Of a stretch of 36,388 nt of DNA, positions 3,001-35,246 are shown piece after piece; positions within the stretch are counted from its first letter, which is position 1; each line of letters opens with the position of its first letter. The position numbers were made by a program, and so were the translations under genes. The DNA comes from Eledone cirrhosa (lineage: Eukaryota). The stretch covers positions 1 through 36,388 of the forward strand of contig CAXHJY010000581.1 in NCBI GenBank assembly GCA_964016885.1, read 5' to 3'. Below the pieces are notes generated by a model that was not told the origin of the DNA, did no database searches, and saw only the letters and a list, made by a program, of their open reading frames with translations.

Positions 3001-6000
3001 ACACCCTATATAACTTCTGTCACCACTACACCCTATATAACTTCTGTCACCACTACACCCTATATAACTTCTGTCACCACTACACCCTATATATATAACA
3101 TCTGTCACCACTACACCCTATATAACTTCTGTCACCACTACACCCTATATATATAACTTCTGTCACCACTACACCTTATATAACTTCTGTCACCACTACA
3201 CCCTATATAACTTCTGTCACCACTACACCCTATATATATAACTTCTGTCACCACTACACCCTATATAACTTCTGTCACCACTACACCCTATATATATAAC
3301 TTCTGTCACCACTACACCCTATATAACCTCTGTCACCACTACACCCTATATAACTTCTGTCACCACTACACCCTATATATATAACATCTGTCACCACTAC
3401 ACCCTATATAACTTCTGTCACCACTACACCCTATATAACTTCTGTCACCACTACACCCTATATATATAACTTCTGTCACCACTACACCCTATATAACTTC
3501 TGTCACCACTACACCCTATATATATAACCTCTGTCACCACTACACCCTATATATATAACTTCTGTCACCACTACACCCTATATATATATAACTTCTGTCA
3601 CCACTACACCCTATATATATAACTTCTGTCACCACTACACCCTATATAACTTCTGTCACCACTACGCCCTATATATATAACTTCTGTCACCACTACACCC
3701 TATATATATAACTTCTGTCACCACTACACCCTATATAACTTCTGTCACCACTACACCCTATATATATAACTTCTGTCACCACTACACCCTATATAACTTC
3801 TGTCACCACTACACCCTATATATATAACTTCTGTCACCACTACACCCTATATATATAACTCTGTCACCACTACACCCTATATATATAACTTCTGTCACCA
3901 CTACACCCTATATATATAACTTCTGTCACCACTACGCCCTATATATATAACTTCTGTCACCACTACACCCTATATATATAACTTCTGTCACCACTACACC
4001 CTATATATATAACTTCTGTCACCACTACACCCTATATAACTTCTGTCACCACTACACCCTATATATATAACTTCTGTCACCACTACACCCTATATAACTT
4101 CTGTCACCACTACACCCTATATATATAACTTCTGTCACCACTACACCCTATATAACTTCTGTCACCACTACACCCTATATATATAACTTCTGTCACCACT
4201 ACACCCTATATATATAACCTCTGTCACCACTACACCCTATATATATAACTTCTGTCACTACTACACCCTATATAACTTCTGTCACCACTACACCCTATAT
4301 ATATAACTTCTGTCACCACTACACCCTATATATATAACCTCTGTCACCACTACACCCTATATATATAACATCTGTCACCACTACACCCTATATATATAAC
4401 TTCTGTCACCACTACACCCTATATAACTTCTGTCACCACTACACCCTATATAACTTCTGTCACCACTACACCCTATATATATAACTTCTGTCACCACTAC
4501 ACCCTATATAACTTCTGTCACCACTACACCCTATATAACTTCTGTCACCACTACACCCTATATATATAACATCTGTCACCACTACACCCTATATAACTTC
4601 TGTCACCACTACACCCTATATATATAACTTCTGTCACCACTACACCCTATATAACTTCTGTCACCACTACACCCTATTTAACTTCTGTCACCACTACACC
4701 CTATATAACTTCTGTCACCACTACACCCTATATATATAACATCTGTCACCACTACACCCTATATAACCTCTGTCACCACTACACCCTATATAACTTCTGT
4801 CACCACTACACCCTATATAAATAACATCTGTCACCACTACACCCTATATAACTTCTGTCACCACTACACCCTATATAACTTCTGTCACCACTACACCCTA
4901 TATATATAACTTCTGTCACCACTACACCCTATATAACTTCTGTCACCACTACACCCTATATAACTTCTGTCACCACTACACCCTATATATATAACCTCTG
5001 TCACCACTACACCCTATATATATAACTTCTGTCACCACTACACCCTATATATATAACTTCTGTCACCACTACACCCTATATATATAACCTCTGTCACCAC
5101 TACACCCTCTATATATATAACTTCTGTCACCACTACACCCTATATATATAACTTCTGTCACCACTACACCCTATATAACTTCTGTCAACACTACGCCCTA
5201 TATATATAACTTCTGTCACCACTACACCCTATATATATAACTTCTGTCACCACTACACCCTATATAACTTCTGTCACCACTACACCATATATATATAACT
5301 TCTGTCACCACTACACCCTATATAACTTCTGTCACCACTACACCCTATATATATAACTCTGTCACCACTACACCCTATATATATAACTTCTGTCACCACT
5401 ACACCCTATATATATAACTTCTGTCACCACTACACCCTATATATATAACCTCTGTCACCACTACACCCTATATATATAACTTCTGTCACCACTACACCCT
5501 ATATATATAACTTCTGTCACCACTACACCCTATATAACTTCTGTCACCACTACGCCCTATATATATAACTTCTGTCACCACTACACCCTATATATATAAC
5601 TTCTGTCACCACTACACCCTATATAACTTCTGTCACCACTACACCATATATATATAACTTCTGTCACCACTACACCCTATATAACTTCTGTCACCACTAC
5701 ACCCTATATATATAACTCTGTCACCACTACACCCTATATATATAACTTCTGTCACCACTACACCCTATATATATAACTTCTGTCACCACTACACCCTATA
5801 TAACTTCTGTCACCACTACACCCTATATATATAACTTCTGTCACCACTACACCCTATATATATAACTTCTGTCACCACTACACCCTATATATATAACTTC
5901 TGTCACCACTACACCCTATATAACTTCTGTCACCACTACACCCTATATATATAACTTCTGTCACTACTACACCCTATATAACTTCTGTCACCACTACACC

Positions 6001-9000
6001 CTATATATATAACTTCTGTCACCACTACACCCTATATATATAACCTCTGTCACCACTACGCCCTATATATATACTTCTGTCACCACTACACCCTATATAA
6101 CTTCTGTCACCACTACACCCTATATATATAACTTCTGTCACCACTACACCCTATATATATAACTTCTGTCACCACTACACCCTATATATATAACTTCTGT
6201 CACCACTACACCCTATATAACTTCTGTCACCACTACACCCTATATATATAACTTCTGTCACCACTACACCCTATATAACTTCTGTCACCACTACGCCCTA
6301 TATATATAACTTCTGTCACCACTACACCCTATATAACATCTGTCACCACTACACCCTATATATATAACTTCTGTCACCACTACACCCTATATAACTTCTG
6401 TCACCACTACACCCTATATATATAACTTCTGTCACCACTACACCCTATATAACTTCTGTCACCACTACACCCTATATAACTTCTGTCACCACTACACCCT
6501 ATATATATAACTTCTGTCACCACTACACCCTATATATATAACTTCTGTCACCACTACACCCTATATAACTTCTGTCACCACTACACCCTATATAACTTCT
6601 GTCACCACTACACCCTATATATATAACATCTGTCACCACTACACCCTATATAACCTCTGTCACCACTACACCCTATATAACTTCTGTCACCACTACACCC
6701 TATATATATAACATCTGTCACCACTACACCCTATATAACTTCTGTCACCACTACACCCTATATAACTTCTGTCACCACTACACCCTATATAACTTCTGTC
6801 ACCACTACACCCTATATATATAACCTCTGTCACCACTACACCCTATATATATAACTTCTGTCACCACTACACCCTATATATATAACTTCTGTCACCACTA
6901 CACCCTATATATATAACTTCTGTCACCACTACACCCTATATAACTTCTGTCACCACTACGCCCTATATATATAACTTCTGTCACCACTACACCCTATATA
7001 TATAACCTCTGTCACCACTACACCCTATATATATAACTTCTGTCACTACTACACCCTATATAACTTCTGTCACCACTACCCCCTATATATATAACTTCTG
7101 TCACCACTACACCCTATATATATAACCTCTGTCACCACTACACCCTATATATATAACATCTGTCACCACTACACCCTATATATATAACTTCTGTCACCAC
7201 TACACCCTATATAACTTCTGTCACCACTACACCCTATATATATAACCTCTGTCACCACTACACCCTATATATATAACTTCTGTCACCACTACACCCTATA
7301 TAACTTCTGTCACCACTACACCCTATATATATAACATCTGTCACCACTACACCCTATATATATAACTTCTGTCACCACTACACCCTATATATATAACTTC
7401 TGTCACCACTACACCCTATATAACTTCTGTCACCACTACACCCTATATAACTTCTGTCACCACTACACCCTATATATATAACTTCTGTCACCACTACACC
7501 CTATATATATAACTTCTGTCACCACTACATCCTATATAACTTCTGTCACCACTACACCCTATATAACTTCTGTCACCACTACACCCTATATATATAACAT
7601 CTGTCACCACTACACCCTATATAACCTCTGTCATCACTACACCCTATATAACTTCTGTCACCACTACACCCTATATATATAACCTCTGTCACCACTACAC
7701 CCTATATATATAACTTCTGTCACTACTACACCCTATATAACTTCTGTCACCACTACCCCCTATATATATAACTTCTGTCACCACTACACCCTATATATAT
7801 AACCTCTGTCACCACTACACCCTATATATATAACATCTGTCACCACTACACCCTATATATATAACTTCTGTCACCACTACACCCTATATAACTTCTGTCA
7901 CCACTACACCCTATATATATAACTTCTGTCACTACTACACCCTATATAACTTCTGTCACCACTACACCCTATATATATAACTTCTGTCACCACTACACCT
8001 TATATAACTTCTGTCACCACTACACCCTATATAACTTCTGTCACCACTACACCCTATATATATAACTTCTGTCACCACTACACCCTATATAACTTCTGTC
8101 ACCACTACACCCTATATAACTTCTGTCACCACTACACCCTATATATATAACATGTCACCACTACACCCTATATAACCTGTCACCACTACACCCTATATAA
8201 CTTCTGTCACCACTACACCCTATATATATAACATCTGTCACCACTACACCCTATATAACTTCTGTCACCACTACACCCTATATATATAACTCTGTCACCA
8301 CTACACCCTATATATATAACTTCTGTCACCACTACACCCTATATATATAACTTCTGTCACCACTACGCCCTATATATATAACTTCTGTCACCACTACACC
8401 CTATATATATAACTTCTGTCACCACTACACCCTATATATATAACTTCTGTCACCACTACACCCTATATATATAACTTCTGTCACCACTACACCCTATATA
8501 ACTTCTGTCACCACTACACCCTATATATATAACTTCTGTCACCACTACACCCTATATAACTTCTGTCACCACTACGCCCTATATATATAACTTCTGTCAC
8601 CACTACACCCTATATATATAACCTCTGTCACCACTACACCCTATATATATAACTTCTGTCACTACTACACCCTATATAACTTCTGTCACCACTACCCCCT
8701 ATATATATAACTTCTATCACCACTACACCCTATATATATAACCTCTGTCACCACTACACCCTATATATATAACCTCTGTCACCACTACACCCTATATATA
8801 TAACTTCTGTCACCACTACACCCTATATAACTTCTGTCACCACTACACCCTATATATATAACCTCTGTCACCACTACACCCTATATATATAACTTCTGTC
8901 ACCACTACACCCTATATATATAACATCTGTCACCACTACACCCTATATAACTTCTGTCACCACTACACCCTATATATATAACTTCTGTCACCACTACACC

Positions 9001-12000
9001 CTATATAACTTCTGTCACCACTACACCCTATATAACTTCTGTCACCACTACACCCTATATATATAACTTCTGTCACCACTACACCCTATATAACTTCTGT
9101 CACCACTACACCCTATATAACTTCTGTCACCACTACACCCTATATATATAACATCTGTCACCACTACACCCTATATAACTTCTGTCACCACTACACCCTA
9201 TATATATAACTTCTGTCACCACTACACCCTATATAACTTCTGTCACCACTACACCCTATATAACTTCTGTCACCACTACACCCTATATATATAACATCTG
9301 TCACCACTACACCCTATATAACCTCTGTCACCACTACACCCTATATAACTTCTGTCACCACTACACCCTATATAAATAACATCTGTCACCACTACACCCT
9401 ATATAACTTCTGTCACCACTACACCCTATATAACTTCTGTCACCACTACACCCTATATAACTTCTGTCACCACTACACCCTATATATATAACTTCTGTCA
9501 CCACTACACCCTATATAACTTCTGTCACCACTACACCCTATATAACTTCTGTCACCACTACACCCTATATATATAACCTCTGTCACCACTACACCCTATA
9601 TATATAACTTCTGTCACCACTACACCCTATATATATAACTTCTGTCACCACTACACCCTATATATATAACCTCTGTCACCACTACACCCTCTATATATAT
9701 AACTTCTGTCACCACTACACCCTATATATATAACTTCTGTCACCACTACACTCTATATAACTTCTGTCACCACTACACCCTATATATATAACTTCTGTCA
9801 CCACTACACCCTATATAACTTCTGTCACCACTACACCCTATATATATAACTCTGTCACCACTACACCCTATATATATAACTTCTGTCACCACTACACCCT
9901 ATATATATAACTTCTGTCACCACTACACCCTATATAACTTCTGTCACCACTACGCCCTATATATATAACTTCTGTCACCACTACACCCTATATATATAAC
10001 TTCTGTCACCACTACACCCTATATATATAACTTCTGTCACCACTACACCCTATATAACTTCTGTCACCACTACACCCTATATATATAACTTCTGTCACCA
10101 CTACACCCTATATAACTTCTGTCACCACTACACCCTATATATATAACCTCTGTCACCACTACACCCTATATATATTACTTCTGTCACTACTACACCCTAT
10201 ATAACTTCTGTCACCACTACCCCCTATATATATAACTTGTGTCACCACTACGCCCTATATATATAACTTCTGTCACCACTACACCCTATATATATAACCT
10301 CTGTCACCACTACGCCCTATATATATTACTTCTGTCACTACTACACCCTATATAACTTCTGTCACCACTACCCCCTATATATATAACTTCTGTCACCACT
10401 ACCCCCTATATATATAACTTCTGTCACCACTACACCCTATATAACTTCTGTCACCACTACACCCTATATATATAACTTCTGTCACCACTACACCCTATAT
10501 AACTTCTGTCACCACTACGCCCTATATATATAACTTCTGTCACCACTACACCTATATAACATCTGTCACCACTACACCCTATAATATAACTTCTGTCACC
10601 ACTACACCCTATATAACTTCTGTCACCACTACACCTATATATATAACTTCTGTCACCACTACACCCTATATAACTTCTGTCACCACTACACCCTATATAA
10701 CTTCTGTCACCACTACACCCTATATATATAACTTCTGTCACCACTACACCCTATATATATAACTTCTGTCACCACTACACCCTATATAACTTCTGTCACC
10801 ACTACACCCTATATAACTTCTGTCACCACTACACCCTATATATATAACATCTGTCAGCACTACACCCTATATAACCTCTGTCACCACTACACCCTATATA
10901 ACTTCTGTCACCACTACACCCTATATATATAACATCTGTCACCACTACACCCTATATAACTTCTGTCACCACTACACCCTATATAACTTCTGTCACCACT
11001 ACACCCTATATAACTTCTGTCACCACTACACCCTATATATATAACTTCTGTCACCACTACACCCTATATAACTTCTGTCACCACTACACCCTATATAACT
11101 TCTGTCACCACTACACCCTATATATATAACCTCTGTCACCACTACACCCTATATATATAACTTCTGTCACCACTACACCCTATATATATATAACTTCTGT
11201 CACCACTACACCCTATATATATAACTTCTGTCACCACTACACCCTATATAACTTCTGTCACCACTACGCCCTATATATATAACTTCTGTCACCACTACAC
11301 CCTATATATATAACTTCTGTCACCACTACACCCTATATAACTTCTGTCACCACTACACCCTATATATATAACTTCTGTCACCACTACACCCTATATAACT
11401 TCTGTCACCACTACACCCTATATATATAACTCTGTCACCACTACACCCTATATATATAACTTCTGTCACCACTACACCCTATATATATAACTTCTGTCAC
11501 CACTACACCCTGTATAACTTCTGTCACCACTACGCCCTATATATATAACTTCTGTCACCACTACACCCTATATATATAACTTCTGTCACCACTACACCCT
11601 ATATATATAACTTCTGTCACCACTACACCCTATATAACTTCTGTCACCACTACACCCTATATATATAACTTCTGTCACCACTACACCCTATATAACTTCT
11701 GTCACCACTACGCCCTATATATATAATTTCTGTCACCACTACACCCTATATATATAACCTCTGTCACCACTACACCCTATATATATAACTTCTGTCACTA
11801 CTACACCCTATATAACTTCTGTCACCACTACCCCCTATATATATAACTTCTGTCACCACTACACCCTATATATATAACCTCTGTCACCACTACACCCTAT
11901 ATATATAACATCTGTCACCACTACACCCTATATATATAACTTCTGTCACCACTACACCCTATATAACTTCTGTCACCACTACACCCTATATATATAACAT

Positions 12001-15000
12001 CTGTCACCACTACACCCTATATAACTTCTGTCACCACTACACCCTATATATATAACTTCTGTCACCACTACACCCTATATAACTTCTGTCACCACTACAC
12101 CCTATATAACTTCTGTCACCACTACACCCTATATATATAACTTCTGTCACCACTACACCCTATATATATAACTTCTGTCACCACTACATCCTATATAACT
12201 TCTGTCACCACTACACCCTATATAACTTCTGTCACCACTACACCCTATATATATAACATCTGTCACCACTACACCCTATATAACCTCTGTCACCACTACA
12301 CCCTATATAACTTCTGTCACCACTACACCCTATATATATAACCTCTGTCACCACTACACCCTATATATATAACTTCTGTCACTACTACACCCTATATAAC
12401 TTCTGTCACCACTACCCCCTATATATATAACTTCTGTCACCACTACACCCTATATATATAACCTCTGTCACCACTACACCCTATATATATAACATCTGTC
12501 ACCACTACACCCTATATATATAACTTCTGTCACCACTACACCCTATATAACTTCTGTCACCACTACACCCTATATATATAACCTCTGTCACCACTACACC
12601 CTATATACATAACTTCTGTCACCACTACACCCTATATAACTTCTGTCACCACTACACCCTATATAACTTCTGTCACCACTACACCCTATATATATAACTT
12701 CTGTCACCACTACACCCTATATAACTTCTGTCACCACTACACCCTATATAACTTCTGTCACCACTACACCCTATATATATATAACTTCTGTCACCACTAC
12801 ACCCTATATATATAACTTCTGTCACCACTACATCCTATATAACTTCTGTCACCACTACACCCTATATAACTTCTGTCACCACTACACCCTATATATATAA
12901 CATCTGTCACCACTACACCCTATATAACCTCTGTCACCACTACACCCTATATAACTTCTGTCACCACTACACCCTATATATATAACATCTGTCACCACTA
13001 CACCCTATATAACTTCTGTCACCACTACACTCTATATATATAACTTCTGTCACCACTACACCCTATATAACTTCTGTCACCACTACACCCTATATATATA
13101 ACTTCTGTCACCACTACACCCTATATAACTTCTGTCACCACTACACCCTATATATATAACTTCTGTCACCACTACACCCTATATATATAACTTCTGTCAC
13201 CACTACACCCTATATAACTTCTGTCACCACTACGCCCTATATATATAACTTCTGTCACCACTACACCCTATATATATAACTTCTGTCACCACTACACCCT
13301 ATATATATAACTTCTGTCACCACTACATCCTATATAACTTCTGTCACCACTACACCCTATATAACTTCTGTCACCACTACACCCTATATATATAACATCT
13401 GTCACCACTACACCCTATATAACCTCTGTCACCACTACACCCTATATAACTTCTGTCACCACTACACCCTATATAACTTCTGTCACCACTACACTCTATA
13501 TATATAACTTCTGTCACCACTACACCCTATATAACTTCTGTCACCACTACACCCTATATAACTTCTGTCACCACTACACCCTATATATATAACTTCTGTC
13601 ACCACTACACCCTATATATATAACTTCTGTCACCACTACACCCTATATATATAACTTCTGTCACCACTACACCCTATATAACTTCTGTCACCACTACACC
13701 CTATATAACTTCTGTCACCACTACACCCTATATATATAACTTCTGTCACCACTACACCCTATATATATAACTTCTGTCACCACTACACCCTATATAACTT
13801 CTGTCACCACTACTCCCTATATATATAACTTCTGTCACCACTACACCCTATATATATAACTTCTGTCACCACTACACCCTATTTATATAACTTCTGTCAC
13901 CACTACACCCTATATAACTTCTGTCACCACTACACCCTATATATATAACTTCTGTCACCACTACACCCTATATAACTTCTGTTACCACTACACCCTATAT
14001 ATATATAACTTCTGTCACCACTACACCCTATATAACATCTGTCACCACTACACCCTATATAACTTCTGTCACCACTACACCCTATATAACTTCTGTCACC
14101 ACTACACCCTATATAACTTCTGTCACCACTACACCCTATATAACTTCTGTCACCACTACACCCTATATATATAACTTCTGTCACCACTACACCCTATGTA
14201 TATAACTTCTGTTACCACTACACCCTATATATATAACATCTGTCACCACTACACCCTATATAACTTCTGTCACCACTACACCCTATATATATAACTTCTG
14301 TCACCACTACACCCTATATATATATAACCTCTGTCACCACTACACCCTATATAACATCTGTCACCACTACGCCCTATATATATAACTTCTGTTACCACTA
14401 CACCCTATATAACATGTCACCACTACACCCTATATATATAACTTCTGTTACCACTACACCCTATATAACATCTGTCACCACTACACCCTATATAACATCT
14501 GTCACCACTACACCCTATATAACTTCTGTCACCACTACACCCTATATAACTTCTGTCACCACTACACCCTATATAACTTCTGTCACCACTACACCCTATA
14601 TAACTTCTGTCACCACTACCCCCTATATATATAACCTCTGTCACTACTACACCCTATATATATATAACTTCTGTCACCACTACACCCTATATAACTTCTG
14701 TCACCACTACACCCTATATAACATCTGTCACCACTACGCCCTATATATATAACTTCTGTCACCACTACACCCTATATAACATCTGTCCCCACTACACCCT
14801 ATATAACATCTGTCACCACTACACCCTATATAATTTCTGTCACCACTACACCCTATATAACTTCTGTCACCACTACACCTTATATAACTTCTGTCACCAC
14901 TACACCCTATATATATAACTTCTGTTACCACTACACCCTATATAACTTCTGTCACCACTACACCCTATATATGTAACTTCTGTCACCACTACACCCTATA

Positions 15001-18000
15001 TATATAACATCTGTCACCACTACACCCTATATAACTTCTGTCACCACTACACCCTATATATATAACTTCTGTCACCACTACACCCTATATATATAACATC
15101 TGTCACCACTACACCCTATATAACTTCTGTCACCACTACACCCTATATAACTTCTGTCACCACTACACCCTATATATATAACATCTGTCACCACTACACC
15201 CTATATATATAACTTCTGTCACCACTACCCCCTATATAACTTCTGTCACCACTACACCCTATATATATAACTTCTGTCACCACTACACCCTATATATATA
15301 ACTTCTGTCACCACTACACCCTATATATATAACTTCTGTCACCACTACACCCTATATATATAACATCTGTCACCACTACACCCTATATAACATGTCACCA
15401 CTACACCCTATATATATAACTTCTGTTACCACTACACCCTATATAACTTCTGTCACCACTACACCCTATATAACTTCTGTCACCACTACACCCTATATAA
15501 CTTCTGTCACCACTACACCCTATATAACTTCTGTCACCACTACCCCCTATATATATTACCTCTGTCACTACTACACCCTATATATATATAACTTCTGTCA
15601 CCACTACACCCTATATAACTTCTGTCACCACTACGCCCTATATATATAACTTCTGTCACCACTACACCCTATATAACATCTGTCACCACTACACCCTATA
15701 TAACATCTGTCACCACTACGCCCTATATATATAACCTCTGTCACTACTACACCCTATATAACTTCTGTCACCACTACACCCTATATAACTTCTGTCACCA
15801 CTACACCCTATATATATAACTTCTGTCACCACTACACCCTATATATATAACATCTGTCACCACTACACCCTATATAACTTCTGTCACCACTACACCCTAT
15901 ATAACTTCTGTCACCACTACACCCTATATAACTTCTGTCACCACTACACCCTATATATATAACTTCTGTCACCACTACACCCTATATATATAACATCTGT
16001 CACCACTACACCCTATATATATAACTTCTGTCACCACTACACCCTATATAACTTCTGTCACCACTACACCCTATATATATAACTTCTGTCACCACTACAC
16101 CCTATATATATAACTTCTGTCACCACTACACCCTATATATATATAACTTCTGTCACCACTACACCCTATATAACTTCTGTCACCACTACACCCTATATAT
16201 ATAACTTCTGTCACCACTACACCCTATATATATAACTTCTGTCACCACTACACCCTATATAACTTCTGTCACCACTACCCCCTATATAACTTCTGTCACC
16301 ACTACACCCTATATATATAACTTCTGTCACCACTACACCCTATATATATAACTTCTGTCACCACTACACCCTATATAACTTCTGTCACCACTACCCCCTA
16401 TATATATAACTTCTGTCACAACTACACCCAATATATATAATTTCTGTCACCACTACCCCCTATATAACTTCTGTCACCACTACCCCCTATATATATAAGT
16501 TCTGTCACCACTACACCCAATATATATAACTTCTGTCACCACTACACCCTATATAACATCTGTCACCACTACACCCTATATAACTTCTGTCACCACTACA
16601 CCCTATATATATAACCTCTGTCACCACTACACCCTATATAACTTCTGTCACCACTACACCCTATATATATAACTTCTGTCACAACTACACCCAATATATA
16701 TAACTTCTGTCACCACTACACCCTATATATATAACTTCTGTCACCACTACACCCTATATAACTTCTGTCACCACTACGCCCTATATATATAACATCTGTC
16801 ACCACTACACCCTATATAACTTCTGTCACCACTACACCCTATATATAACTTCCGTCACCACTACACCCTATATATAACTTCTGTCACCACTACACCCTAT
16901 ATAACTTCTGTCACCACTACACCCTATATATATAACTTCTGTCACCACTACACCCTATATATATAACATCTGTCACCACTACACCCTATATAACTTCTGT
17001 CACCACTACACCCTATATATAACTTCCGTCACCACTACACCCTATATATAACTTCTGTCACCACTACACCCTATATAACTTCTGTCACCACTACACCCTA
17101 TATAACTTCTGTCACCACTACACCCTATATAACTTCTGTCACCACTACGCCCTATATATATAACTTCTGTCACCACTACACCCTATATAACTTCTGTCAC
17201 CACTACACCCTATATATATAACTTCTGTCACCACTATACCCTATATAACTTCTGTCACCACTACCCCCTATATAACTTCTGTCACCACTACACCCTATAT
17301 AACTTCTGTCACCACTAAACCCTATATATATAACTTCTGTCACCACTACACCCTATATATATAACTTCTGTCACCACTACACCCTATATAACTTGTCACC
17401 ACTACCCCCTATATAACTTCTGTCACCACTACACCCTATATATATAACCTCTGTCACCACTACACCCTATATATATAACTTCTGTCACCACTACACCCTA
17501 TATATAAAACTTCTGTCACCACTACACCCTATATATATAACATCTGTCACCACTACACCCTATATAACTTCTGTCACCACTACCCCCTATATAACTTCTG
17601 TCACCACTACCCCCTATATAACTTCTGTCACCACTACACCCTATATATATAACTTCTGTCACCACTACACCCTATATAACTTCTGTCACCACTACACCCT
17701 ATATAACTTCTGTCACCACTACGCCCTATATATATAACTTCTGTCACCACTACCCCCTATATAACTTCTGTCACCACTACACCCTATATAACTTCTGTCA
17801 CCACTACACCCTATATATATAACTTCTGTCACCACTACACCCTATATATATATAACTTCTGTCACCACTACACCCTATATAACTTCTGTCACCACTACAC
17901 CCCATATAACATCTGTCACCACTACACCCTATATAACTTCTGTCACCACTACACCCTATATAACTTCTGTCACTACTACACCCTATATAACATCTGTCAC

Positions 18001-18570
18001 CACTACACCCTATATATATAACTTCTGTTACCACTACACCCTATATATATAACTTCTGTCATCACTACACCCTATATAACTTCTGTCACCACTACACCCT
18101 ATATATATAACTTCTGTCACTACTACACCCTATATATATAACTTCTGTCACCACTACACCCTATATAACATCTGTCACCACTACACCCTATATATATAAG
18201 TTCTGTCACCACTACACCCTATATAACTTCTGTCACCACTACACCCTATATATATAAGTTCTGTCACCACTACACCCTATATAACATCTGTCACCACTAC
18301 ACCCTATATATATAAGTTCTGTCACCACTACACCCTATATAACTTCTGTCACCACTACACCCTATATATATAAGTTCTGTCACCACTACACCCTATATAA
18401 CTTCTGTCACCACTACACCCTATATATATAAGTTCTGTCACCACTACACCCTATATATATAACTTCTGTCACCACTACACCCTATATATATAACTTCTGT
18501 CACCACTACACCCTATATATATAACTTCTGTCACCACTACACCCTATATATATAACTTCTGTCACAACAC
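1..18570. repeat. Large minisatellite, unit TTCTGTCACCACTACACCC(TA)3AC (27 bp) or (TA)5 (31 bp); roughly 640 copies; continues beyond the left edge
   Basis: Directly visible tandem array; 9-aa periodic ORFs (IGCSGDRSY) confirm the 27-bp period; ends at ...GTCACAACAC before a TA run. Confidence 0.99.
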
Positions 18571-18578
18571 TATATATA

Positions 18579-18741
18579 TCATCATCACCATCATCATCAT
18601 CACCGTTTTACGTCCGTTCTTCCACGCTAGCATGGGTTAGACGGGTTGTCCTGTTGTGGGCAGTGTCTGGTCGCAACAGGACAACCCGTCTAACCCATGC
18701 TAGCGTGGAAGAACGGACGTAAAACGGTGATGATGATGATG

Positions 18742-18746
<5 letters not shown>
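18579..18746. repeat. Fold-back palindrome made of the 3' end of an RTE-related SINE (73-bp perfect arms, 17-nt loop, (CAT)n/(GAT)n tails outward)
   Basis: 18584-18656 is the exact reverse complement of 18674-18746; sequence matches the SINE tail at about 23045-23130 and resembles the LINE 3' end at 19140-19200. Confidence 0.93.
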
Positions 18747-18780
<34 letters not shown>

Positions 18781-18849
18781 AAAAAGAGATGAAATCGAAA
18801 ATGCAACTGGAGCCTTATTTTTTTTTAAAATATATATATTTATTTGGTT

Positions 18850-18887
18850 CCTTTACCGGTTTCGCAGTTCTTCTGCTTTTCAAAAGG
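18850..18887 (-). ncRNA. Minimal type I hammerhead ribozyme motif (U3-A8 core variant)
   Basis: Minus strand reads CCUU-UUGAAAA-GCAG(aagaa)CUGC-GAAA-CCGG-UA^-AAGG: stem I CCUU/AAGG, core UUGANAA, 4-bp stem II, GAAA, palindromic stem III, GUA cleavage triplet. Confidence 0.7.
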
Positions 18888-18964
18888 TGAGTTGAGATGG
18901 AGGGTCTGTGGTTTTTGTCACATCTCAGATGTGAGAAAAACCACAGACCCTCCATCTCAACTCA

Positions 18965-19002
18965 CCTTTTGAAAAGCAGAAGAACTGCGACACCGGTAAA
19001 GG
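18965..19002 (+). ncRNA. Mirror copy of the hammerhead motif with core mutation GAAA>GACA (18991), predicted inactive
   Basis: CCTT-TTGAAAA-GCAG-aagaa-CTGC-GACA-CCGG-TA-AAGG on the + strand. Confidence 0.62.
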
Positions 19003-19139
19003 AACCAAATAAATATATATATTTTTTTTAAAAATAAGGCTCCAGTTGCATTTTCGATTTCATCTCTTTTTCTTTATACTTTCACTCGTGTAGGACACCT
19101 CGGTTATTTTTCATTTTGTAAAAAATACCTCACTTTCTA

Positions 19140-20981
19140 ATCATCATCATCATCATTTTACGTCCGCTTTTCCCTACTTGCAAGGGTGGGACGGGTCTTA
19201 TTCAGCACAGCATCTTTCCACTCGTCACGGTCCCTCGTCATCTCCACCGTGAGCTTCAATGATCTGAGGTCTGTTCTCACCACCTCCGCCCATGTTTTTC
19301 GTGGTCTACCTCTACCACGTCTTCCTTCAACTGGCATTTCCTGGCACTTCTTCACCCATCGGTCATCCTCCATGCGCATCACATGTCCAAACCACCTCAG
19401 TCTCCTCTCCCGTACACTACATTCTATCCCTCTCAGACACAGTTTCTCTCTCAACACATTTATGCTGGGTCGTTCACGCACATTTACACTGCACATCCAA
19501 CGGAGCATGCTTGCCTCATTTCTCTCCAGCCGTTGCATATCCTCTGCGGTTGCTGCCCATGTCTCACTACCATGCAGCATCGCGCTCCTCACACAGGCAT
19601 CATACAACCGGCCTTTCGTACGCAGGGAGAAACCCTTCTTCGTCAACAGAGGAAGCAGCTCCCTAAACTTCTTCCAACCCGTCCTTATTCTAGATACTAT
19701 GGCCTCGGAACACCCTCCTCCCATGCTAATCTGATCTCCTAGGTACCGGAAGCTATCCACCACTTCTATAGCGCCCTCTCGCATTTGAAAAATGTGTCTA
19801 TCAGTGCGACTTCTACTGTCTAATTTCCCTGTACATCTACTGCATACATATTTCTCCCTACCTGTTAGTTTGCCTGCTATCCCGCTACATCTCTTGTGTA
19901 CCCAGGACCTGCATTGTGTGCATTTTATAGAATTTATGCCAGTTCCTTTTCTGCATATCGAACATGGCCATTTCCCTGACGGAATCAGGGTTTTGTCCTC
20001 TTTTCTACTCATCAACACTTTTGTCTTAGCTAGATTTACTCTGTCCTCTTGCTTCCAACTGCTGTTTCCATAGCCGGAATTTATTCTCTAGCTCCTCTAC
20101 TGATTCTGCTATAAGAGCCAGATCGTCAGCATAGAGAAGTTCCCATGGACAGCCAGTCTTAAACTCCTCTGTTATGGCTTGGAGGACTATAATGAACAAG
20201 AGCGGGCTGAGGACCGAACCCTGATGTACTCCTACTTGTATCTGGAATTCCTCACTAAACTCCATTCCTACCCTGACTTTACTGAGAGTACCTCTGTACA
20301 AAGTTTGCACTGTCCTCACAAGCCATTCCTCAACACCTAGCTTCCTTAGGGACCACCAGATGACAGATCGGGGTACCCTATCAAAGGCCTTCTCTAGGTC
20401 AACAAAGGCTAAGTATAGTGGCTTATTCTTCTCTAAGAACCTCTCTTGCATTTGTCTCACCAAGAAGAGGGCATCTGTTGTACTCTTCCCAGGCACAAAA
20501 CCAAACTGCATCTCATCTAGTTTGACCCTTTCTCTAATTAGTTGTGCTAAAATCCTTTCTGCCACTTTCATAACCTGATCTATCAGTTTTATACCCCTAT
20601 AATTGCTCCTCTCCAAAGCATCCCCTTTACCTTTGTAGCAATTTATGAGAATACTGCTGCACCAGTCTTTGGGTATGACACCACCATATATAGCCTGATT
20701 GATTATGCGTGCAACCAGTTTAGTGCCTACGTCCCCTGATGCCTTCAGCATCTCAGCAACTATTCCCGATGGTCCGGCCGCCTTACCATTTTTCATTTCC
20801 CTAATCGCCTCTTGGACCCTATATTCGTCAATCTCAATAGCTGGTCCCTCTGTCGGATCTACCAAGGGTAATTTCTCTCTCTCCCATTCGTTCTCCACAT
20901 TCATCAGTCTCTCATACTGACATTTCCAGGCCTCCTTTTTCTGGTCATTCGTGACACTAAGTACACCGGCATTATTATATA
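19140..20981 (-). mobile_element. 5'-truncated RTE-clade non-LTR retrotransposon (RT domain, PHD finger, C-terminal region; endonuclease missing)
   Basis: RT motifs YRGIKL, QFGF, FVDLEKAFDRV, GVHQGSVLSPLLF, YADD, FRYLG; RTE-type C-terminus RRLRWFGHVMRM...GRRGRGRPRKTW; (ATG)n tail at 19140-19156; candidate target-site duplication TTTCTAAT at 19134-19141 and 20982-20989. Confidence 0.95.
19158..20973 (-). pseudogene. LINE ORF2 reverse transcriptase remnant, about 600 codons with one frameshift near 20043
   Basis: ORFs 20026..20904 and 19158..20018 join as ...LEARG-[frameshift]-RVNLAKTKVLMS...; frame stays open upstream to about 20973 (NAGVLSVTNDQKKEAWKCQYERLMNVE). Confidence 0.9.
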
Positions 20982-22558: not shown

Positions 22559-22643
22559 TACCACCTTGAAATATATCTGTTATTGATAGCACCTTGAGAT
22601 ATATCTGTTATTGATACCACCTTGAGATATATCTGTTATTGAT
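22559..22643. repeat. Three tandem copies of a 28-bp unit (TACCACCTTGAGATATATCTGTTATTGA)
   Basis: CACCTTG at 22562, 22590 and 22618; begins immediately after the GTAAGT donor. Confidence 0.93.
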
Positions 22644-23252: not shown

Positions 23253-23360
23253 CCATCACTAAACTACTTGTGTATAATCTCAGTATGTTTAATTTACCAC
23301 TAAACTATTTGTGTATAATATGAGTGTTTGGTCTACCACTAAACTATTTGTGTATAATCT
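23253..23360. repeat. Three degenerate tandem copies of an about 40-bp unit (CACTAAACTAYTTGTGTATAAT...)
   Basis: CACTAAACTA at 23257, 23298 and 23337. Confidence 0.88.
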
Positions 23361-25704: not shown

Positions 25705-26300
25705 TTATCACAATAGACGTTATCACAATCAATAGACATTATCACAATAGACGTTATCACAATAGACTTTATCACAATAGACGTTATCACAATAGACTTT
25801 ATCACAATAGACGTTATCACAATGGACGATATCACAATGGACGTTATCACAATGGACGTTATCACAATGGACGTTATCACAATGGATATTATCACAATCA
25901 ATAGACGTTATCACAATAGACGTTATCACAATAGATGTTATCACAATGGACGATATCACAATAGATGTTATCACAATGGACGTTATCACAATGGACGTTA
26001 TCACAATAGATGTTATCACAATAGATGTTATCACAATGGACGATATCACAATAGATGTTATCACAATGGACGTTATCACAATGGACGTTATCACAATCAA
26101 TAGACGTTATCACAATCAATAGACGTTATCATAATGGACGTTATCACAATAGATGTTATCACAATGGACGTTATCACAATAGACGTTATCACAATGGACA
26201 CTATCACAATGGACGCTATCACAATGGACGCTATCACAATGGACGCTATCACAATGGATGTTATCACAATGGACGCTATCACAATGGACGCTATCACAAT
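25705..26300. repeat. 15-bp minisatellite (TTATCACAATRGACG), about 39 copies, with occasional 19-bp units (+CAAT)
   Basis: Direct observation; 5-aa periodic ORFs. Confidence 0.98.
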
Positions 26301-26505
26301 AACTTAACTATCATAACAACCTCTCAATTAATCTCCTCTATACAAATGTTTAAACCTATATCCTAGTTAATCTGTCCTCACATTAGTTCACTGCTTCATA
26401 TCACACTATATCTAGTCTCATTAACTAAATCCTACTATAATTAATGTTCTGTTGTCATCTCTATCATTTTACATTAACTGTTGACATTATTGTAATTATC
26501 CCTAA

Positions 26506-26732
26506 GGGCTGTTGATTAGCAGAATCGGTAGAGCACTAGACAAAATATTTCATAGTATTTGTGTACAGTTCTTTACATTCTGAGTTCAAATCCCACTGAG
26601 GTCAAATTTGCTTTTCATCTTTCCGAGGATGATGAAATAAAGTACCAGTAATGTACTGGGATCAATGAAATAATTGACTTTGCACTCCCCCCACAAATTG
26701 CTGGCCCTGTGCCTAAATTAGAAATCATTATT
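26506..26732 (+). mobile_element. tRNA-derived SINE
   Basis: A-box-like TAGCAGAATCGG, B-box GAGTTCAAATCCC, core GCTTTTCATCTTTCCGAGG...AAAGTACCAG, short (ATT) tail; homologous to copies at 34770-35245. Confidence 0.8.
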
Positions 26733-28718: not shown

Positions 28719-28874
<156 letters not shown>

Positions 28875-29011
28875 TAAGTTGAGAATTCTCTTAAGCATAG
28901 TTTCATTCATCTTCTTATTATTGTTGTCACCATCATCACCTTCATCACCACCATCTCCATCATCACTAATTTGAAAATGTTTTTTAATATTTCTACATAG
29001 TTATAAATATG

Positions 29012-31720
29012 TAATGTACTGTACCTCAACTGGTGACAACTGTACTCCAGATAATGTATTGTACCTCATCTGGTGACAACTGTACTCCAGATAATGTATT
29101 GTACCTCATCTGGTGACAACTCTACACCAGATAATGTATTGTACCTCAACTGGTGACAACTGTACTCCAGATAATGTATTGTACCTCAACTGGTGACAAC
29201 TGTACTCCAGATAATGTATTGTACCTCATCTGGTGACAACTCTACACCAGAAAATGTATTGTACCTCATCTGGTGACAACTCTACACCAGATAATGTATT
29301 GTAACTCATCTGGTGACAACTCTACACCAGATAATGTATTGTAACTCATCTGGTGACAACTGTACTCCAGATAATGTATTGTACCTCATCTGGTGACAAC
29401 TGTACTCCAGATAATGTATTGTACCTCATCTGGTGACAACTGTACTCCAGATAATGTATTGTACCTCAACTGGTGACAACTGTACTCCAGATAATGTATT
29501 GTACTTCATCTGGTGACAACTGTACTCCAGATAATGTATTGTACTTCATCTGGTGACAACTGTACTCCAGATAATGTATTGTACCTCATCTGGTGACAAC
29601 TGTACTCCAGATAATGTATTGTACCTCATCTGGTGACAACTGTACTCCAGATAATGTATTGTACCTCATCTGGTGACAACTGTACTCCAGATAATGTATT
29701 GTACCTCAACTGGTGACAACTGTACTCCAGATAATGTATTGTACTTCATCTGGTGACAACTGTACTCCAGATAATGTATTGTACTTCATCTGGTGACAAC
29801 TGTACTCCAGATAATGTATTGTACCTCAACTGGTGACAACTGTACTCCAGATAATGTATTGTACCTCATCTGGTGACAACTGTACTCCAGAAAATGTATT
29901 GTACCTCATCTGGTGACAACTGTACTCCAGATAATGTATTGTACCTCATCTGGTGACAACTGTACACCAGATAATGTATTGTACCTCATCTGGTGACAAC
30001 TGTACTCCAGATAATGTATTGTACCGCATCTGGTGACAACTGTACTCCAGATAATGTATTGTACCTCAACTGGTGACAACTGTACTCCAGATAATGTATT
30101 GTACCTCATCTGGTGACAACTGTACTCCAAAAAATGTATTGTACCTCATCTGGTGACAACTGTATTCCAGATAATGTATTGTACCTCATCTGGTGACAAC
30201 TGTACTCCAGATAATGTATTGTACCTCATCTGGTGACAACTGTACTCCAGATAATGTATTGTACCTCATCTGGTGACAACTGTACTCCAGATAATGTATT
30301 GTACCTCAACTGGTGACAACTCTACACCAGAAAATGTATTGTACCTCATCTGGTGACAACTGTACTCCAGAAAATGTATTGTACTTCATCTGGTGACAAC
30401 TGTACTCCAGATAATGTATTGTACCTCATCTGGTGACAACTGTACTCCAGATAATGTATTGTACCTCATCTGGTGACAACTGTACTCCAGATAATGTATT
30501 GTACCTCATCTGGTGACAACTGTACTCCAGAAAATGCATTGTACCTCAACTGGTGACAACTGTACTCCAGATAATGTATTGTACCTCATCTGGTGACAAC
30601 TGTACTCCAGATAATGTATTGTACCTCATCTGGTGACAACTGTACTCCAGATAATGTATTGTACCTCATCTGGTGACAACTGTACTCCAGATAATGTATT
30701 GTACCTCATCTGGTGACAACTGTACTCCAGATAATGTATTGTACCTCAACTGGTGACAACTGTACTCCAGATAATGTATTGTACCTCATCTGGTGACAAC
30801 TGTACTCCAGATAATGTATTGTACCTCATCTGGTGACAACTGTACTCCAGATAATGTATTGTACCTCATCTGGTGACAACTGTACTCCAGATAATGTATT
30901 GTACCTCATCTGGTGACAACTGTACTCCAGAAAATGCATTGTACCTCAACTGGTGACAACTGTACTCCAGAAAATGCATTGTACCTCATCTGGTGACAAC
31001 TGTACTCCAGATAATGTATTGTACCTCATCTGGTGACAACTGTACTCCAGATAATGTATTGTACCTCATCTGGTGACAACTCTACACCAGAAAATGTATT
31101 GTACCTCAACTGGTGACAACTGTACTCCAGAAAATGCATTGTACTTCATCTGGTGACAACTGTACTCCAGATAATGTATTGTACCTCATCTGGTGACAAC
31201 TGTACTCCAGATAATGTATTGTACCTCATCTGGTGACAACTGTACTCCAGAAAATGTATTGTACCCCATCTGGTGACAACTGTACTCCAGATAATGTATT
31301 GTACCTCAACTGGTGACAACTGTACTCCAGATAATGTATTGTACCTCATCTGGTGACAACTGTACTCCATATAATGTATTGTACCTCATCTGGTCACAAC
31401 TGTACTCCAGAAAATGTATTGTACCCCAACTGGTGACAACTGTACTCCAGATAATGTATTGTACCTCATCTGGTGACAACTGTATCCGCCAGATCATGTA
31501 TTGTACCTCATCTGGTCACAACTGTACTCCAGATAATGTATTGTACCTCATCTGGTGACAACTGTACTCCAGATAATGTATTGTACCTCATCTGGTGACA
31601 ACTGTACTCCAGATAATGTATTGTACCTCATCTGGTGACAACTGTACCCGCCAGATCATGTATTGTACCTCATCTGGTCACAACTGTACCTGCCAGATCA
31701 TGTATTATTCTACATCTGGT
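29012..31720. repeat. 40-bp minisatellite (TAATGTATTGTACCTCATCTGGTGACAACTGTACTCCAGA), about 67 copies, with 42-bp variants at the exon-proximal end
   Basis: Direct observation; unit resembles the acceptor/exon junction at 31737-31776. Confidence 0.99.
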
Positions 31721-31753
31721 GTGTATATATATTTTCTATTATTTCTCATCTAG

Positions 31754-31875
31754 TGACAACTATACCCTCCAGATAAACCCTTTGTCAGGTGTGGCTAACG
31801 AAGAACATTTAAGTTACTTTGAGTTCATTGGGCGGATTGCAGGAATGGCTGTGTATCATGGGAAATTGTTAGATG
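31754..31875 (+). CDS. NEDD4: NEDD4-like exon G (HECT): [40 protein letters not shown]
   Basis: CTAG| acceptor, G|GTAAGT donor, 122 nt, phase 2-1; [12 protein letters not shown]...HLSYF fits the NEDD4/NEDD4L subfamily. Confidence 0.98.
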
Positions 31876-32058
31876 GTAAGTGGTAGCTTAACCTTTTAAA
31901 GTTCTTATAAAATTGAATTTGTCATCATTTTTACTGAAATAAATGTAGACATGACAATCAAATGGTTTCTGGTGTGATTTCACTTCATGGCACTTGGGGC
32001 CACAAATATCTTTTTACCTTGTCAAGATTTTGATTGGCAGAAACTCTGAAGAAGCCTC

Positions 32059-34249
32059 TTGTGTGTAATCTGTGTTGTGTTGTGTGTGATCTGTGTTGTG
32101 TTGTGTTGTGATCTGTGTCGTGTATGATCTGTGTTGTGTCGTGTGTTGTCGTGTGTGATCTGTGTTGTGTTGTGTTGTGTGTGATCTGTGTTGTGTTGTG
32201 TCGTGTGTGATCTGTGTTGTGTCGTGTGTTATGTGTTGCCGTGTGTGATCTGTGTTGTGTCGTGTGTTATCTGTGTTGTGTCGTGTGTTATCTGTGTTGT
32301 GTTGTGTCGTGTGTTATCTGTGTTGTGTCGTGTCGTGTGTTATCTGTGTTGTGTCGTGTTATCTGTGTTGTGTCGTGTGTTATCTGTGTTGTTGTGTCGT
32401 GTGTTATCTGTGTTGTGTTGTGTCGTGTGTTATCTGTGTTGTGTCGTGTCGTGTTATCTGTGTTGTGTCGTGTGTTATCTGTGTTGTTGTGTCGTGTGTT
32501 ATCTGTGTTGTGTTGTGTCGTGTGTTATCTGTGTTGTGTCGTGTGTTATCTGTGTTGTGTCGTGTGTGATCTGTGTTGTGTCGTGTGTGATCTGTGTTGT
32601 GTCGTCTGTGATCTGTGTTGTGTTGTGTCGTGTGTTATCTGTGTTGTGTTGTGTCGTGTGTGATCTGTGTTGTGTCGTCTGTGATCTGTGTTGTGTTGTG
32701 TCGTGTGTTATCTGTGTTGTGTTGTGTGTCATCTGTGTTGTGCTGTGTGTGATCTGTGTTGTGTCGTGTGTTATCTGTGTTGTGTGTTATCTGTGTTGTG
32801 TTGTGTCGTGTGTTATCTGTGTTGTGTTGTGTCGTGTGTTATCTGTGTTGTGTCGTGTGTGATCTGTGTTGTGTCGTGTGTGATCTGTGTTGTGTCGTGT
32901 GTGATCTGTGTTGTGTCGTGTGTGATCTGTGTTGTGTTGTGTCGTGTGTGATCTGTGTTGTGTTGTGTTGTGTGTGATCTGTGTTGTGTCGTGTGTTATC
33001 TGTGTTGTGTTGTCGTGTGTTATCTGTGTTGTGTCGTGTGTTATCTGTGTTGTGTCGTGTGTTATCTGTGTTGTGTCGTGTGTGATCTGTGTTGTGTCGT
33101 GTGTTATGTGTTGTGTTGTGTCGTGTGTTGTGTATTGTGTTATCTGTGTTGTGTTGTGTCGTGTGTTATCTGTGTTGTGTCGTGTGTTATCTGTGTTGTG
33201 TCGTGTGTTATCTGTGTTGTGTTGTGTCGTGTGTTATCTGTGTTGTGTTGTGTCGTGTGTTATCTGTGTTGTGTCGTGTGTTATCTGTGTTGTGTTGTGT
33301 CGTGTGTTATCTGTGTTGTGTTGTGTGTTATCTGTGTTGTGTTGTGTCGTGTGTTATCTGTGTTGTGTTGTGTCGTGTGTTATCTGTGTTGTGTCATGTG
33401 TGATCTGTGTTGTGTCGTGTGTGATCTGTGTTGTGTCGTGTGTGATCTGTGTTGTGTCGTGTGTGATCTGTGTTGTGTTGTGTGTGATCTGTGTTGTGTT
33501 GTGTGTTATCTGTGTTGTGTTGTGTCGTGTGTTATCTGTGTTGTGTCGTGTGTTATCTGTGTTGTGTTGTGTCGTGTGTTATCTGTGTTGTGTTGTGTGT
33601 TATCTGTGTTGTGTCGTGTGTTATCTGTGTTGTGTTGTGTCGTGTGTTATCTGTGTTGTGTCATGTGTGATCTGTGTTGTGTCGTGTGTGATCTGTGTTG
33701 TGTCGTGTGTGATCTGTGTTGTGTCGTGTGTGATCTGTGTTGTGTTGTGTGTGATCTGTGTTGTGTTGTGTCGTGTGTTATCTGTGGTGTCGTGTGTGAT
33801 CTGTGTTGTGTTGTGTGTTATCTGTGTTGTGTTGTGTGTCATCTGTGTTGTGTCGTGTGTTATCTGTGTTGTGTCGTGTGTTATCTGTGTTGTGTCGTGT
33901 GTTATGTGTTGTGTCATGTGTGATTTGTGTTGTCGTGTGTTATGTGTTGTGTCGTGTGTGATTTGTGTTGTGTGTTATCTGTGTTGTGTTGTGTCGTGTG
34001 TGATCTGTGTTGTGTTGTGTCGTGTGTTGTGTTGTGTTGTGTGTTATCTGTGTTGTGTTGTGTCGTGTGTTATCTGTGTTGTGTCGTGTGTTATCTGTGT
34101 TGTGTTGTGTGCCGTGTGTGATCTGGGTTGTGTTGTGTTGTGTCGTGTGTGATCTGGGTTGTGTTGTGTTGTGTTGTGTCGTGTGTGATCTGGGTTGTGT
34201 TGTGTTGTGTTGTGTTGTGTGTGATCTCTGTTGTGTTGTGTTGTGTTGT
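32059..34249. repeat. GT-rich minisatellite, 21-bp core (ATCTGTGTTGTGTCGTGTGTK) with variable TGTGT pentamers
   Basis: Direct observation; 7-aa periodic Cys/Val ORFs. Confidence 0.98.
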
Positions 34250-34547
34250 GAACATTTCCAGAGTGAAGTTGTGTGATCTAGTAGTGTGTTGGACTTAAGA
34301 TCATAATATTGTCAGTTTCACTCCTAGATTGGCTTGCATGGTATGTTCTTAATTTATGTTGTTTCAGTACATCAGTTGATAGTAGTGTTAACTTCCAACA
34401 ACTGCCGGTTCTTATTTTCAACTGAGTGAACTTTCTGGTGGGCTGGGGGTCAGCTTTTCTTATTTGGATTGAAACAAAAACGTAAAGATCTTTTTATTTT
34501 CGATTTCTGTAGATTTCTGATCTAAATATTCCTGTTTACTTTTTCAG

Positions 34548-34771: not shown

Positions 34772-34991
34772 GCAATTAATAATGAATTCTACGATAAGCA
34801 CAAGACCAACAATTTGAGGAGATGGGAAAGTTGATTAAATCAACCTTGGTGTATTACTGGTACTTCATTTATAGAACCCATAAGGATGAAAGACAAAGCT
34901 AATCTTGGTGGGATTTGAAATCAGAATATAAAGGGCCGTAACTATGCTGGAAAGCATGGTGTCCAACACTTTACCATTTCTGCCAATCCAC
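34772..34991 (-). mobile_element. tRNA-derived SINE, near full length
   Basis: Reverse-complement homology to 35044-35235 and 26506-26732 (GGGATTTGAA B-box, CTGGTACTT core). Confidence 0.82.
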
Positions 34992-34998
34992 AATCATT

Positions 34999-35246
34999 GG
35001 TGGATTGGCAGTATCGGTAGAGCGCCAGACGCCCTGCTAGGGCGGTGGATTGGCAGTATCGGTAGAGGGTCAGACACCATGCTTTCCAGCATAGTTACGT
35101 CCCTTTACGATCTGAGTTCAAATCCCACCGAGGTTGACTTTGCCTTTCATCCTTATGGGGTCGATAAAATAAAGTACCAGTAATGCACTGGGTAATTGCT
35201 GGCCTTGTGCCTAAGTAGAAACAATTATTAATAATAATAATAATAA
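34999..35246 (+). mobile_element. tRNA-derived SINE with a duplicated 5' head and (ATT)/(AAT)n tail
   Basis: GGTGGATTGGCAGTATCGGTAGAG twice (34999, 35044); B-box GAGTTCAAATCCC; core GACTTTGCCTTTCATCCTTATGGGGTCGATAAAATAAAGTACCAG. Confidence 0.85.

Follow-up and report, generated by a model that had tools for sequence, protein, structure and literature searches.

A splice acceptor junction copied as an intronic minisatellite in a cephalopod NEDD4 gene

How does the boundary between an intron and an exon come to be copied many times over inside its own intron, with the acceptor AG absent from every copy, and what becomes of splicing at the original site? The question is raised by a stretch of 36,388 nucleotides of the Eledone cirrhosa genome (called the window here), in which a minisatellite fills most of one intron of a NEDD4 gene. 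The array holds 67 copies of a unit that corresponds to the end of this intron and the start of the exon that follows. Probably they descend from a single local seed placed just upstream of the junction; once its AG had been lost, this seed would have multiplied through unequal exchange or slippage, and the array is likely neutral for splicing.

The window contains the 3′ half of the gene on the forward strand. Judged by its sequence, the host is a cephalopod NEDD4-family HECT E3 ligase gene, of C2-WW-HECT organization and with a HECT domain of the NEDD4 type. The exon beyond the array matches the NEDD4 HECT domain in a phmmer search (E = 1.8e-18), with NEDD4 and NEDD4L as the top PDB matches; its match to the Pfam HECT model (E = 0.002, for a query of only 40 amino acids) lies under the curated cut-off. 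A search with a linker exon led to C2-WW-HECT proteins, and the homologues carry PF00168, PF00397 and PF00632. Of the 229 residues encoded by seven exons, 227 are shared with the cephalopod NEDD4 sequence P0001, 222 with that of Argonauta hians, and fewer with those of a cuttlefish (217) and a bivalve (185), which points to an octopod-like cephalopod. The peptide EYSATDNYTLQ is free of insertion at the junction in 27 of 27 stored homologues. The upstream exon and the intron end in similar octamers (28866–28873 and 31746–31753), which agree at six of 8 positions; the likeness showed up as an overhang of the X4 contig described below and is probably due to chance. The features of the locus are collected in Table 1.

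Table 1. Positions of the exons, the intron and the elements of the array, in coordinates of the window
Feature	Position	Strand	Basis or remark
Upstream NEDD4 exon (LWIEF...YSA)	28751–28873	+	Ends in phase 2; all 40 residues as in cephalopod NEDD4 P0001
Host intron, 2,880 nt, GT..AG	28874–31753	+	Skipped in the X4 contig
Possible decayed older copy of the junction, TAG intact at 28998–29000	28985–29010	+	Score 25; weak likeness
Full units: 64 with 40 bp and 3 with 42 bp, 67 in all	29014–31699	+	TGG in all, CAG in 65
42-bp unit	31454–31495	+	Three 40-bp units between it and the other 42-bp units
Two 42-bp edge units	31616–31699	+	Start at 31616 and 31658; CAGs at 31654 and 31696
Partial edge unit, 22 nt	31700–31721	+	15/19 ungapped to 31737–31755
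AT/T-rich non-unit spacer, 15 nt	31722–31736	+	Within the 55-nt AG-free zone (31697–31751) ahead of the real AG
Source segment: last 17 nt of intron (AG 31752–31753) and first 22 nt of exon	31737–31775	+	Alignments
NEDD4 HECT-domain exon (DNYTLQ...KLLD)	31754–31875	+	phmmer, Pfam, X4 contig coverage

The relationship between unit and junction was first proposed in a preliminary description of this DNA, and it is well founded. The segment 31627–31656 is identical to 31745–31774 at 27 of 30 positions without a gap, as had been described, and the homology extends over positions −17 to +22 of the junction. Each full unit consists of ATG followed by a copy of these 39 nt. The local alignment score of 52 compares with a maximum of 37 in 20,000 shuffled sequences, none of which reached it, and of 26 in 640 background tiles, so that the match lies beyond chance in a test on which the description had staked it. 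The copy was made from genomic sequence: over −9 to −1, eight of the nine positions of the unit agree with the genomic acceptor and five with the spliced mRNA, which rules out an origin from spliced message and bears out the earlier proposal that the acceptor together with the DNYTLQI codons seeded the array. The origin of the array from the neighbouring splice junction is secure. A seed from A-to-I edited RNA was also considered, prompted by the three of five founder substitutions that are A>G after T, and was set aside: the pattern was recognized post hoc, and the changes at columns 8, 10 and 11 of the unit jointly reproduce its own downstream TGTAC motif, so that they may be one event.

The array assigned by TRF as a 40-bp repeat runs from 29012 to 31721. 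Its 2,710 nt make up 94% of the 2,880-nt intron, in agreement with the preliminary description; that account had carried it on to 31776, whereas it stops at 31721 and is followed by the 15-nt spacer. The division into 42-bp units near the exon and about 60 units of 40 bp farther away holds in part. Both classes exist and the shorter dominates, with an exact count of 64, but only 3 of the 67 units are of 42 bp, and 40-bp units starting at 31496, 31536 and 31576 are interleaved with those at 31454, 31616 and 31658. The 42-bp and partial units are all located at the exon-proximal (3′) edge of the array. The 42-bp units keep the ancestral length and have two private changes, while in the 40-bp units those bases are ancestral and 2 bp have been lost. 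The expectation that the 42-bp units would be basal is borne out only in part: a neighbour-joining tree places them as sister to the 40-bp class, but they stand no closer to the junction, at 7–9 events compared with 6–9. The units as a whole are homogeneous, with a mean pairwise difference of 2.0, and multi-unit blocks recur. Homogeneous units, divergent edge units and repeated blocks together point to ordinary minisatellite turnover, of the kind described for mirage minisatellites in the available text of the report on them (PMC3087553).

How does the array end at the exon? The partial edge unit resembles the acceptor to a degree that 47 of 10,000 shuffles equal; it retains the ancestral TATTAT and already has TGG. 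From this TGG to the real TAG is 34 nt, and not the 42 bp that had been supposed to continue up to the junction, so the array is out of register with its source. The spacer matches neither the 3′ half of the unit nor the exon (5,650 and 9,238 of 10,000 shuffles, respectively, score as well). Given the offset and the non-unit spacer, the array does not just run on into the real junction as its final unit. At the opposite end lies an AT-rich segment, 28985–29010, first spotted by eye, that may be a still older copy of the junction with its TAG intact; none of 262 background tiles reaches its score, yet 162 of 10,000 dinucleotide shuffles do. An older array of about 34 bp, composed of the 5′ flank, the partial unit and the spacer, was tried as well and found unsupported (1,203 of 10,000 shuffles).

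Some recurrent variants among the units at 29014–31699 copy motifs from within their own unit. The column 16 T>A change repeats CAACTG (14 units), and column 35 T>A (7 units) is complementary to the other arm of the unit stem. These variants hint at templated mutation inside the array.

Sequencing runs X1, X4, X5 and X6, four of seven runs of one organism, were compared with the window over 31616–32055 only. Of the nine X1 records eight are listed, each of them placed on units and with loose ends that run only into array sequence. Four contig depths (210, 20, 197.9 and 241.6), divided by the corresponding counts in the window (32, 3, 30.8 and 37.7), give 6.4–6.7 per copy, where the k-mer of each contig was deduced from its coordinates; a fifth, for one 31-mer, gives 7.0 or 2.3 according to how its k-mer is assigned. 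The similar depth per copy in these four is consistent with a single array at one locus, with about the copy number assembled. Run X1 is possibly the source of the assembly, and its emptiness over 31691–32055 is a gap that proves nothing. The RAD-seq runs X5 and X6 have no reads over 31616–32055, and this carries no weight; no contig extends over the whole array.

Is the real acceptor still used? A contig of run X4 (2,068 nt, depth 85) covers the exon, and its loose ends correspond to 28836–28865 on one side and to 34548 onward on the other; the 3′ end of the upstream exon at 28873 is joined directly to 31754. As the loose ends are the flanking exons, the contig reads as a normally spliced transcript in which the true AG has been used. 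There is thus regular splicing 28873 to 31754 to 34548 in what is likely an mRNA contig, the type of the X4 library being unrecorded. No X4 contig lies on units within 31616–32055, although contigs drop rare isoforms. The share of T at −20 to −4 is 0.59 for the real acceptor, 0.41 for the TGG site of the unit and 0.18–0.29 for its CAG sites. Use of a cryptic CAG would give a stop codon in 63 of 65 cases, in 51 of them at the second codon; an extension that stays open and in frame would come only from the two CAGs of the edge units, at 31654 and 31696, with predicted lengths of 99 and 57 nt. With its T-rich tract and 55 nt free of AG, the real site has probably been left unaffected by the array. 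It would be expected to win by virtue of these two features and of a strong donor 122 nt downstream, while the CAGs of the units would lose out through their poor tracts and the premature stops that 63 of the 65 would bring.

What has happened to the AG in the units? Every one of the 67 full units reads TGG at the acceptor position, as does the partial unit; none retains TAG, just as had been noted from the units first read. The array is not free of AG, however, since 65 of the 67 units contain a CAG derived from the exon. Four other substitutions relative to the junction are common to 61–67 of the 67 units, and with one founder and shared substitutions the loss of the AG is a single event and not 67. 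The chance that such an event should hit the AG is 0.24–0.33 if 5–7 substitutions are distributed over 39 columns, and 0.2 for two substitutions in the 19-nt core, the part shared by the full units and the partial unit. The partial and full units have just two differences from the junction in common, and the AG change is among them. As the partial unit has TGG and lacks the GTAC change, loss of the AG preceded the changes by which the full units are distinguished. Such an early change is as compatible with selection as it is with chance. The AG was possibly removed by selection, which a single locus cannot show.

These observations can be ordered into a plausible history. About 39 nt (−17 to +22) would have been copied to a point at least 15 nt upstream of the source, by template switching or by repair-mediated capture; alternatively, the seed may stem from a tandem duplication whose last copy then lost its 3′ (exon) half. 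The data fit template switch, repair-mediated capture and tandem duplication alike. Early in the founder TAG would have become TGG. A 42-bp founder then presumably split into a 42-bp lineage, marked by a T>G and an A>C change, and a 40-bp lineage marked by the 2-bp deletion, the latter expanding by ordinary turnover. The TGG of the distal units would on this account reflect inheritance and not repeated selection. The data come from one haplotype, and both the order of events and the mechanism of seeding are therefore reconstructions.

The main alternative gives splicing an active part. An AG-intact copy so near the real acceptor would have been harmful, only a founder with a dead AG would have survived, and truncation of the proximal unit would have restored the AG-free zone. 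The uniform TGG of the full and partial units, the place of the AG loss among the earliest changes, the 55 nt without AG ahead of the real site and the invariance of the protein at the junction in all 27 homologues are as such a filter would leave them. Yet the loss was one event with a chance of 0.2–0.33, and 65 CAGs are tolerated in the array. Moreover, amphioxus mirages that carry AG or GT are spliced normally in the available text of the papers describing them (PMC3087553, PMC3902484), and so is the message of human CBS 844ins68, where the distal copy is used (available text of PMC2630376); the junction repeat of human F7 also retains its signals alongside normal splicing (PMC1557585). The possible relic at 28985–29010, weak as its likeness is, would even have its TAG intact. 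We consider a splicing filter a possibility, though a doubtful one, and the one shared founder event and a CAG in 65 of 67 units leave unproven the earlier idea that nothing but an AG-dead copy could be tolerated. An account of another kind looks to the folding of the unit: the A>G change would have been templated by the opposite arm of an imperfect inverted repeat, and the resulting hairpin of 6–8 bp would have favoured slippage. The stem of the unit does include the changed base (−8.1 and −9.9 kcal/mol, compared with −1.8 for the junction), three consecutive units fold at z = −3.2, and the later changes at column 35, T>G in 3 units and T>A in 7, both improve the same stem; the long fold-backs at 18571–18759 and 18774–19078 suggest template switching in this gene. 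Single units, by contrast, fold in an ordinary manner (z = −0.94 and −1.67), the stem is broken by the common variants column 16 T>A (14 units) and column 41 T>A (12 units), and A>G is an ordinary transition. This makes a templated origin distinctly unlikely. Elements of both accounts can be joined, in that the AG and the nearest exon half would have been lost before any copy could persist, the same A>G completing the hairpin that drove the 67-fold expansion. We think this rather improbable. If it were true, the exon-edge satellites of repeat-rich cephalopod genomes would constitute a natural mutagenesis of 3′ splice-site choice, and loss of the AG would be expected to be concentrated in exon-proximal copies.

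Could the array itself have a function, or be no copy at all? Occupying 94% of the intron, duplicating exon sequence and being able to fold, it might act through decoy elements, exonic or splicing ones, or else as an RNA structure or editing substrate, by which the splicing or expression of NEDD4 is tuned. But the stem exhibits no compensatory changes, other introns of the gene are equally filled with arrays unrelated to this one, and only normal splicing has been observed. We find a function of this kind very improbable, and there is no evidence for the decoy exonic elements suggested in the preliminary description. It can also be argued that the likeness is accidental, that a dispersed satellite family has landed beside a similar junction, or that the assembly is at fault; the genome is repeat-rich, and no X1 contig bridges array and exon. 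The failure of all 20,000 shuffles to attain the score, the confinement of the X1 ends to the array and the scaling of depth with copy number in the window leave such readings scarcely credible. A local seed, multiplied after the loss of its AG and neutral for splicing, is the explanation that we prefer.

The setting of the array is itself repetitive, with tandem arrays covering 24,708 of the 36,388 bases of the window (68%). An intronic satellite with 27/31-bp units occupies 1–18565, a length of at least 18.5 kb, and runs past the start of the window. Beyond it are two adjacent fold-back palindromes, at 18571–18759 (93-nt arms at 92% with a loop of 3 nt) and 18774–19078 (152-nt arms at 96% with a loop of 1 nt), which could form long hairpins in the pre-mRNA and are possible substrates for A-to-I editing. 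On the reverse strand, 19158–20970 holds a 5′-truncated retroelement fragment, in whose two overlapping frames a reverse transcriptase domain (RVT_1, E = 3.8e-25) is recognized along with a PHD-like finger (E = 3e-6); it is likely a non-LTR element. An inverted repeat at 34868–35168, with 124-nt arms of 85% identity placed 53 nt apart, appears by eye to be composed of a short interspersed repeat that is also present near 26500–26720. Four arrays (22559–22643, 23257–23360, 25705–26300 and 32059–34251) begin 6–185 nt past a donor site, and in none of the four is the array's own exon edge copied. Among 17 exon edges scanned in the window, those of one exon being placed 1–2 nt off, no other mirage was found, 16 scoring 24–40 compared with 52 here. 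With arrays over 68% of the window and one edge in 17 with an intronic copy, it takes no special cause to account for an array seeded at the edge of an exon.

How does this array relate to known systems? It is a mirage minisatellite, a kind of repeat already known from amphioxus (lancelets); the amphioxus papers on mirages cite Canestro et al. (2002). The unit spans the boundary, the intronic array lies beside its source, splicing is undisturbed (in one contig), and the units evolve in concert except at the edge, these being the features by which mirages are recognized. We found no cephalopod mirage in the literature covered, which was without most subscription papers. The array extends mirage minisatellites to a cephalopod, and at this locus one can follow, base by base, how a satellite arose from a known single-copy source. 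Many such arrays would provide a test of whether splice signals are purged from copies close to a real site, a question that bears on the part proposed for duplicated junctions in intron gain (PMC3087553).

In amphioxus, mirages are described for Adh3, the globins BflGb6 and BflGb9, troponin C and PGBD5 (available text of PMC3087553 and PMC3902484, to which the comparisons here refer). That of BflGb6, described by Ebner et al., is of the acceptor side, made up of the intron's 3′ end and of the exon's 5′ part. Many units, though not all, retain AG or GT and splicing is regular; edge units escape homogenization, and the origin is called unclear (PMC3087553). The present array shares with these the tandem copies of a boundary within the intron, concerted evolution, divergent edges and normal splicing. 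Like that of BflGb6 it is acceptor-sided, and its unit length falls within the reported range, 10–72 bp at Adh3. It differs in having 67 copies, compared with 3–6 at BflGb6, in that the original AG is present in no unit, in its detachment from the junction by a 15-nt spacer that leaves it out of register, and in its cephalopod host.

Three further systems offer partial parallels, each as given in the available text of its source. The 37-bp VNTR in intron 7 of human F7 likewise has a unit that spans an exon–intron boundary, and its extra sites are silent; unlike the present array it is donor-sided, its pseudo-sites are intact and functional, and its first unit is the authentic junction (PMC1557585). 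In human CBS c.844_845ins68 the acceptor junction of intron 7 and exon 8 is duplicated and, as here, use of the distal site yields normal mRNA, but this is a single 68-bp duplication that has not been amplified (PMC2630376). Repair-mediated duplication yields short local copies that include splice sites or partial exons, with microhomology or filler, and inserts them near their source, which makes it a candidate route to an out-of-register seed; the cases described are from vertebrates, with inserts of at least 50 bp whose distance to the source peaks at about 1.2 kb and which were not amplified afterwards, whereas the seed proposed here would have been shorter and was multiplied into an array (PMC2671141).
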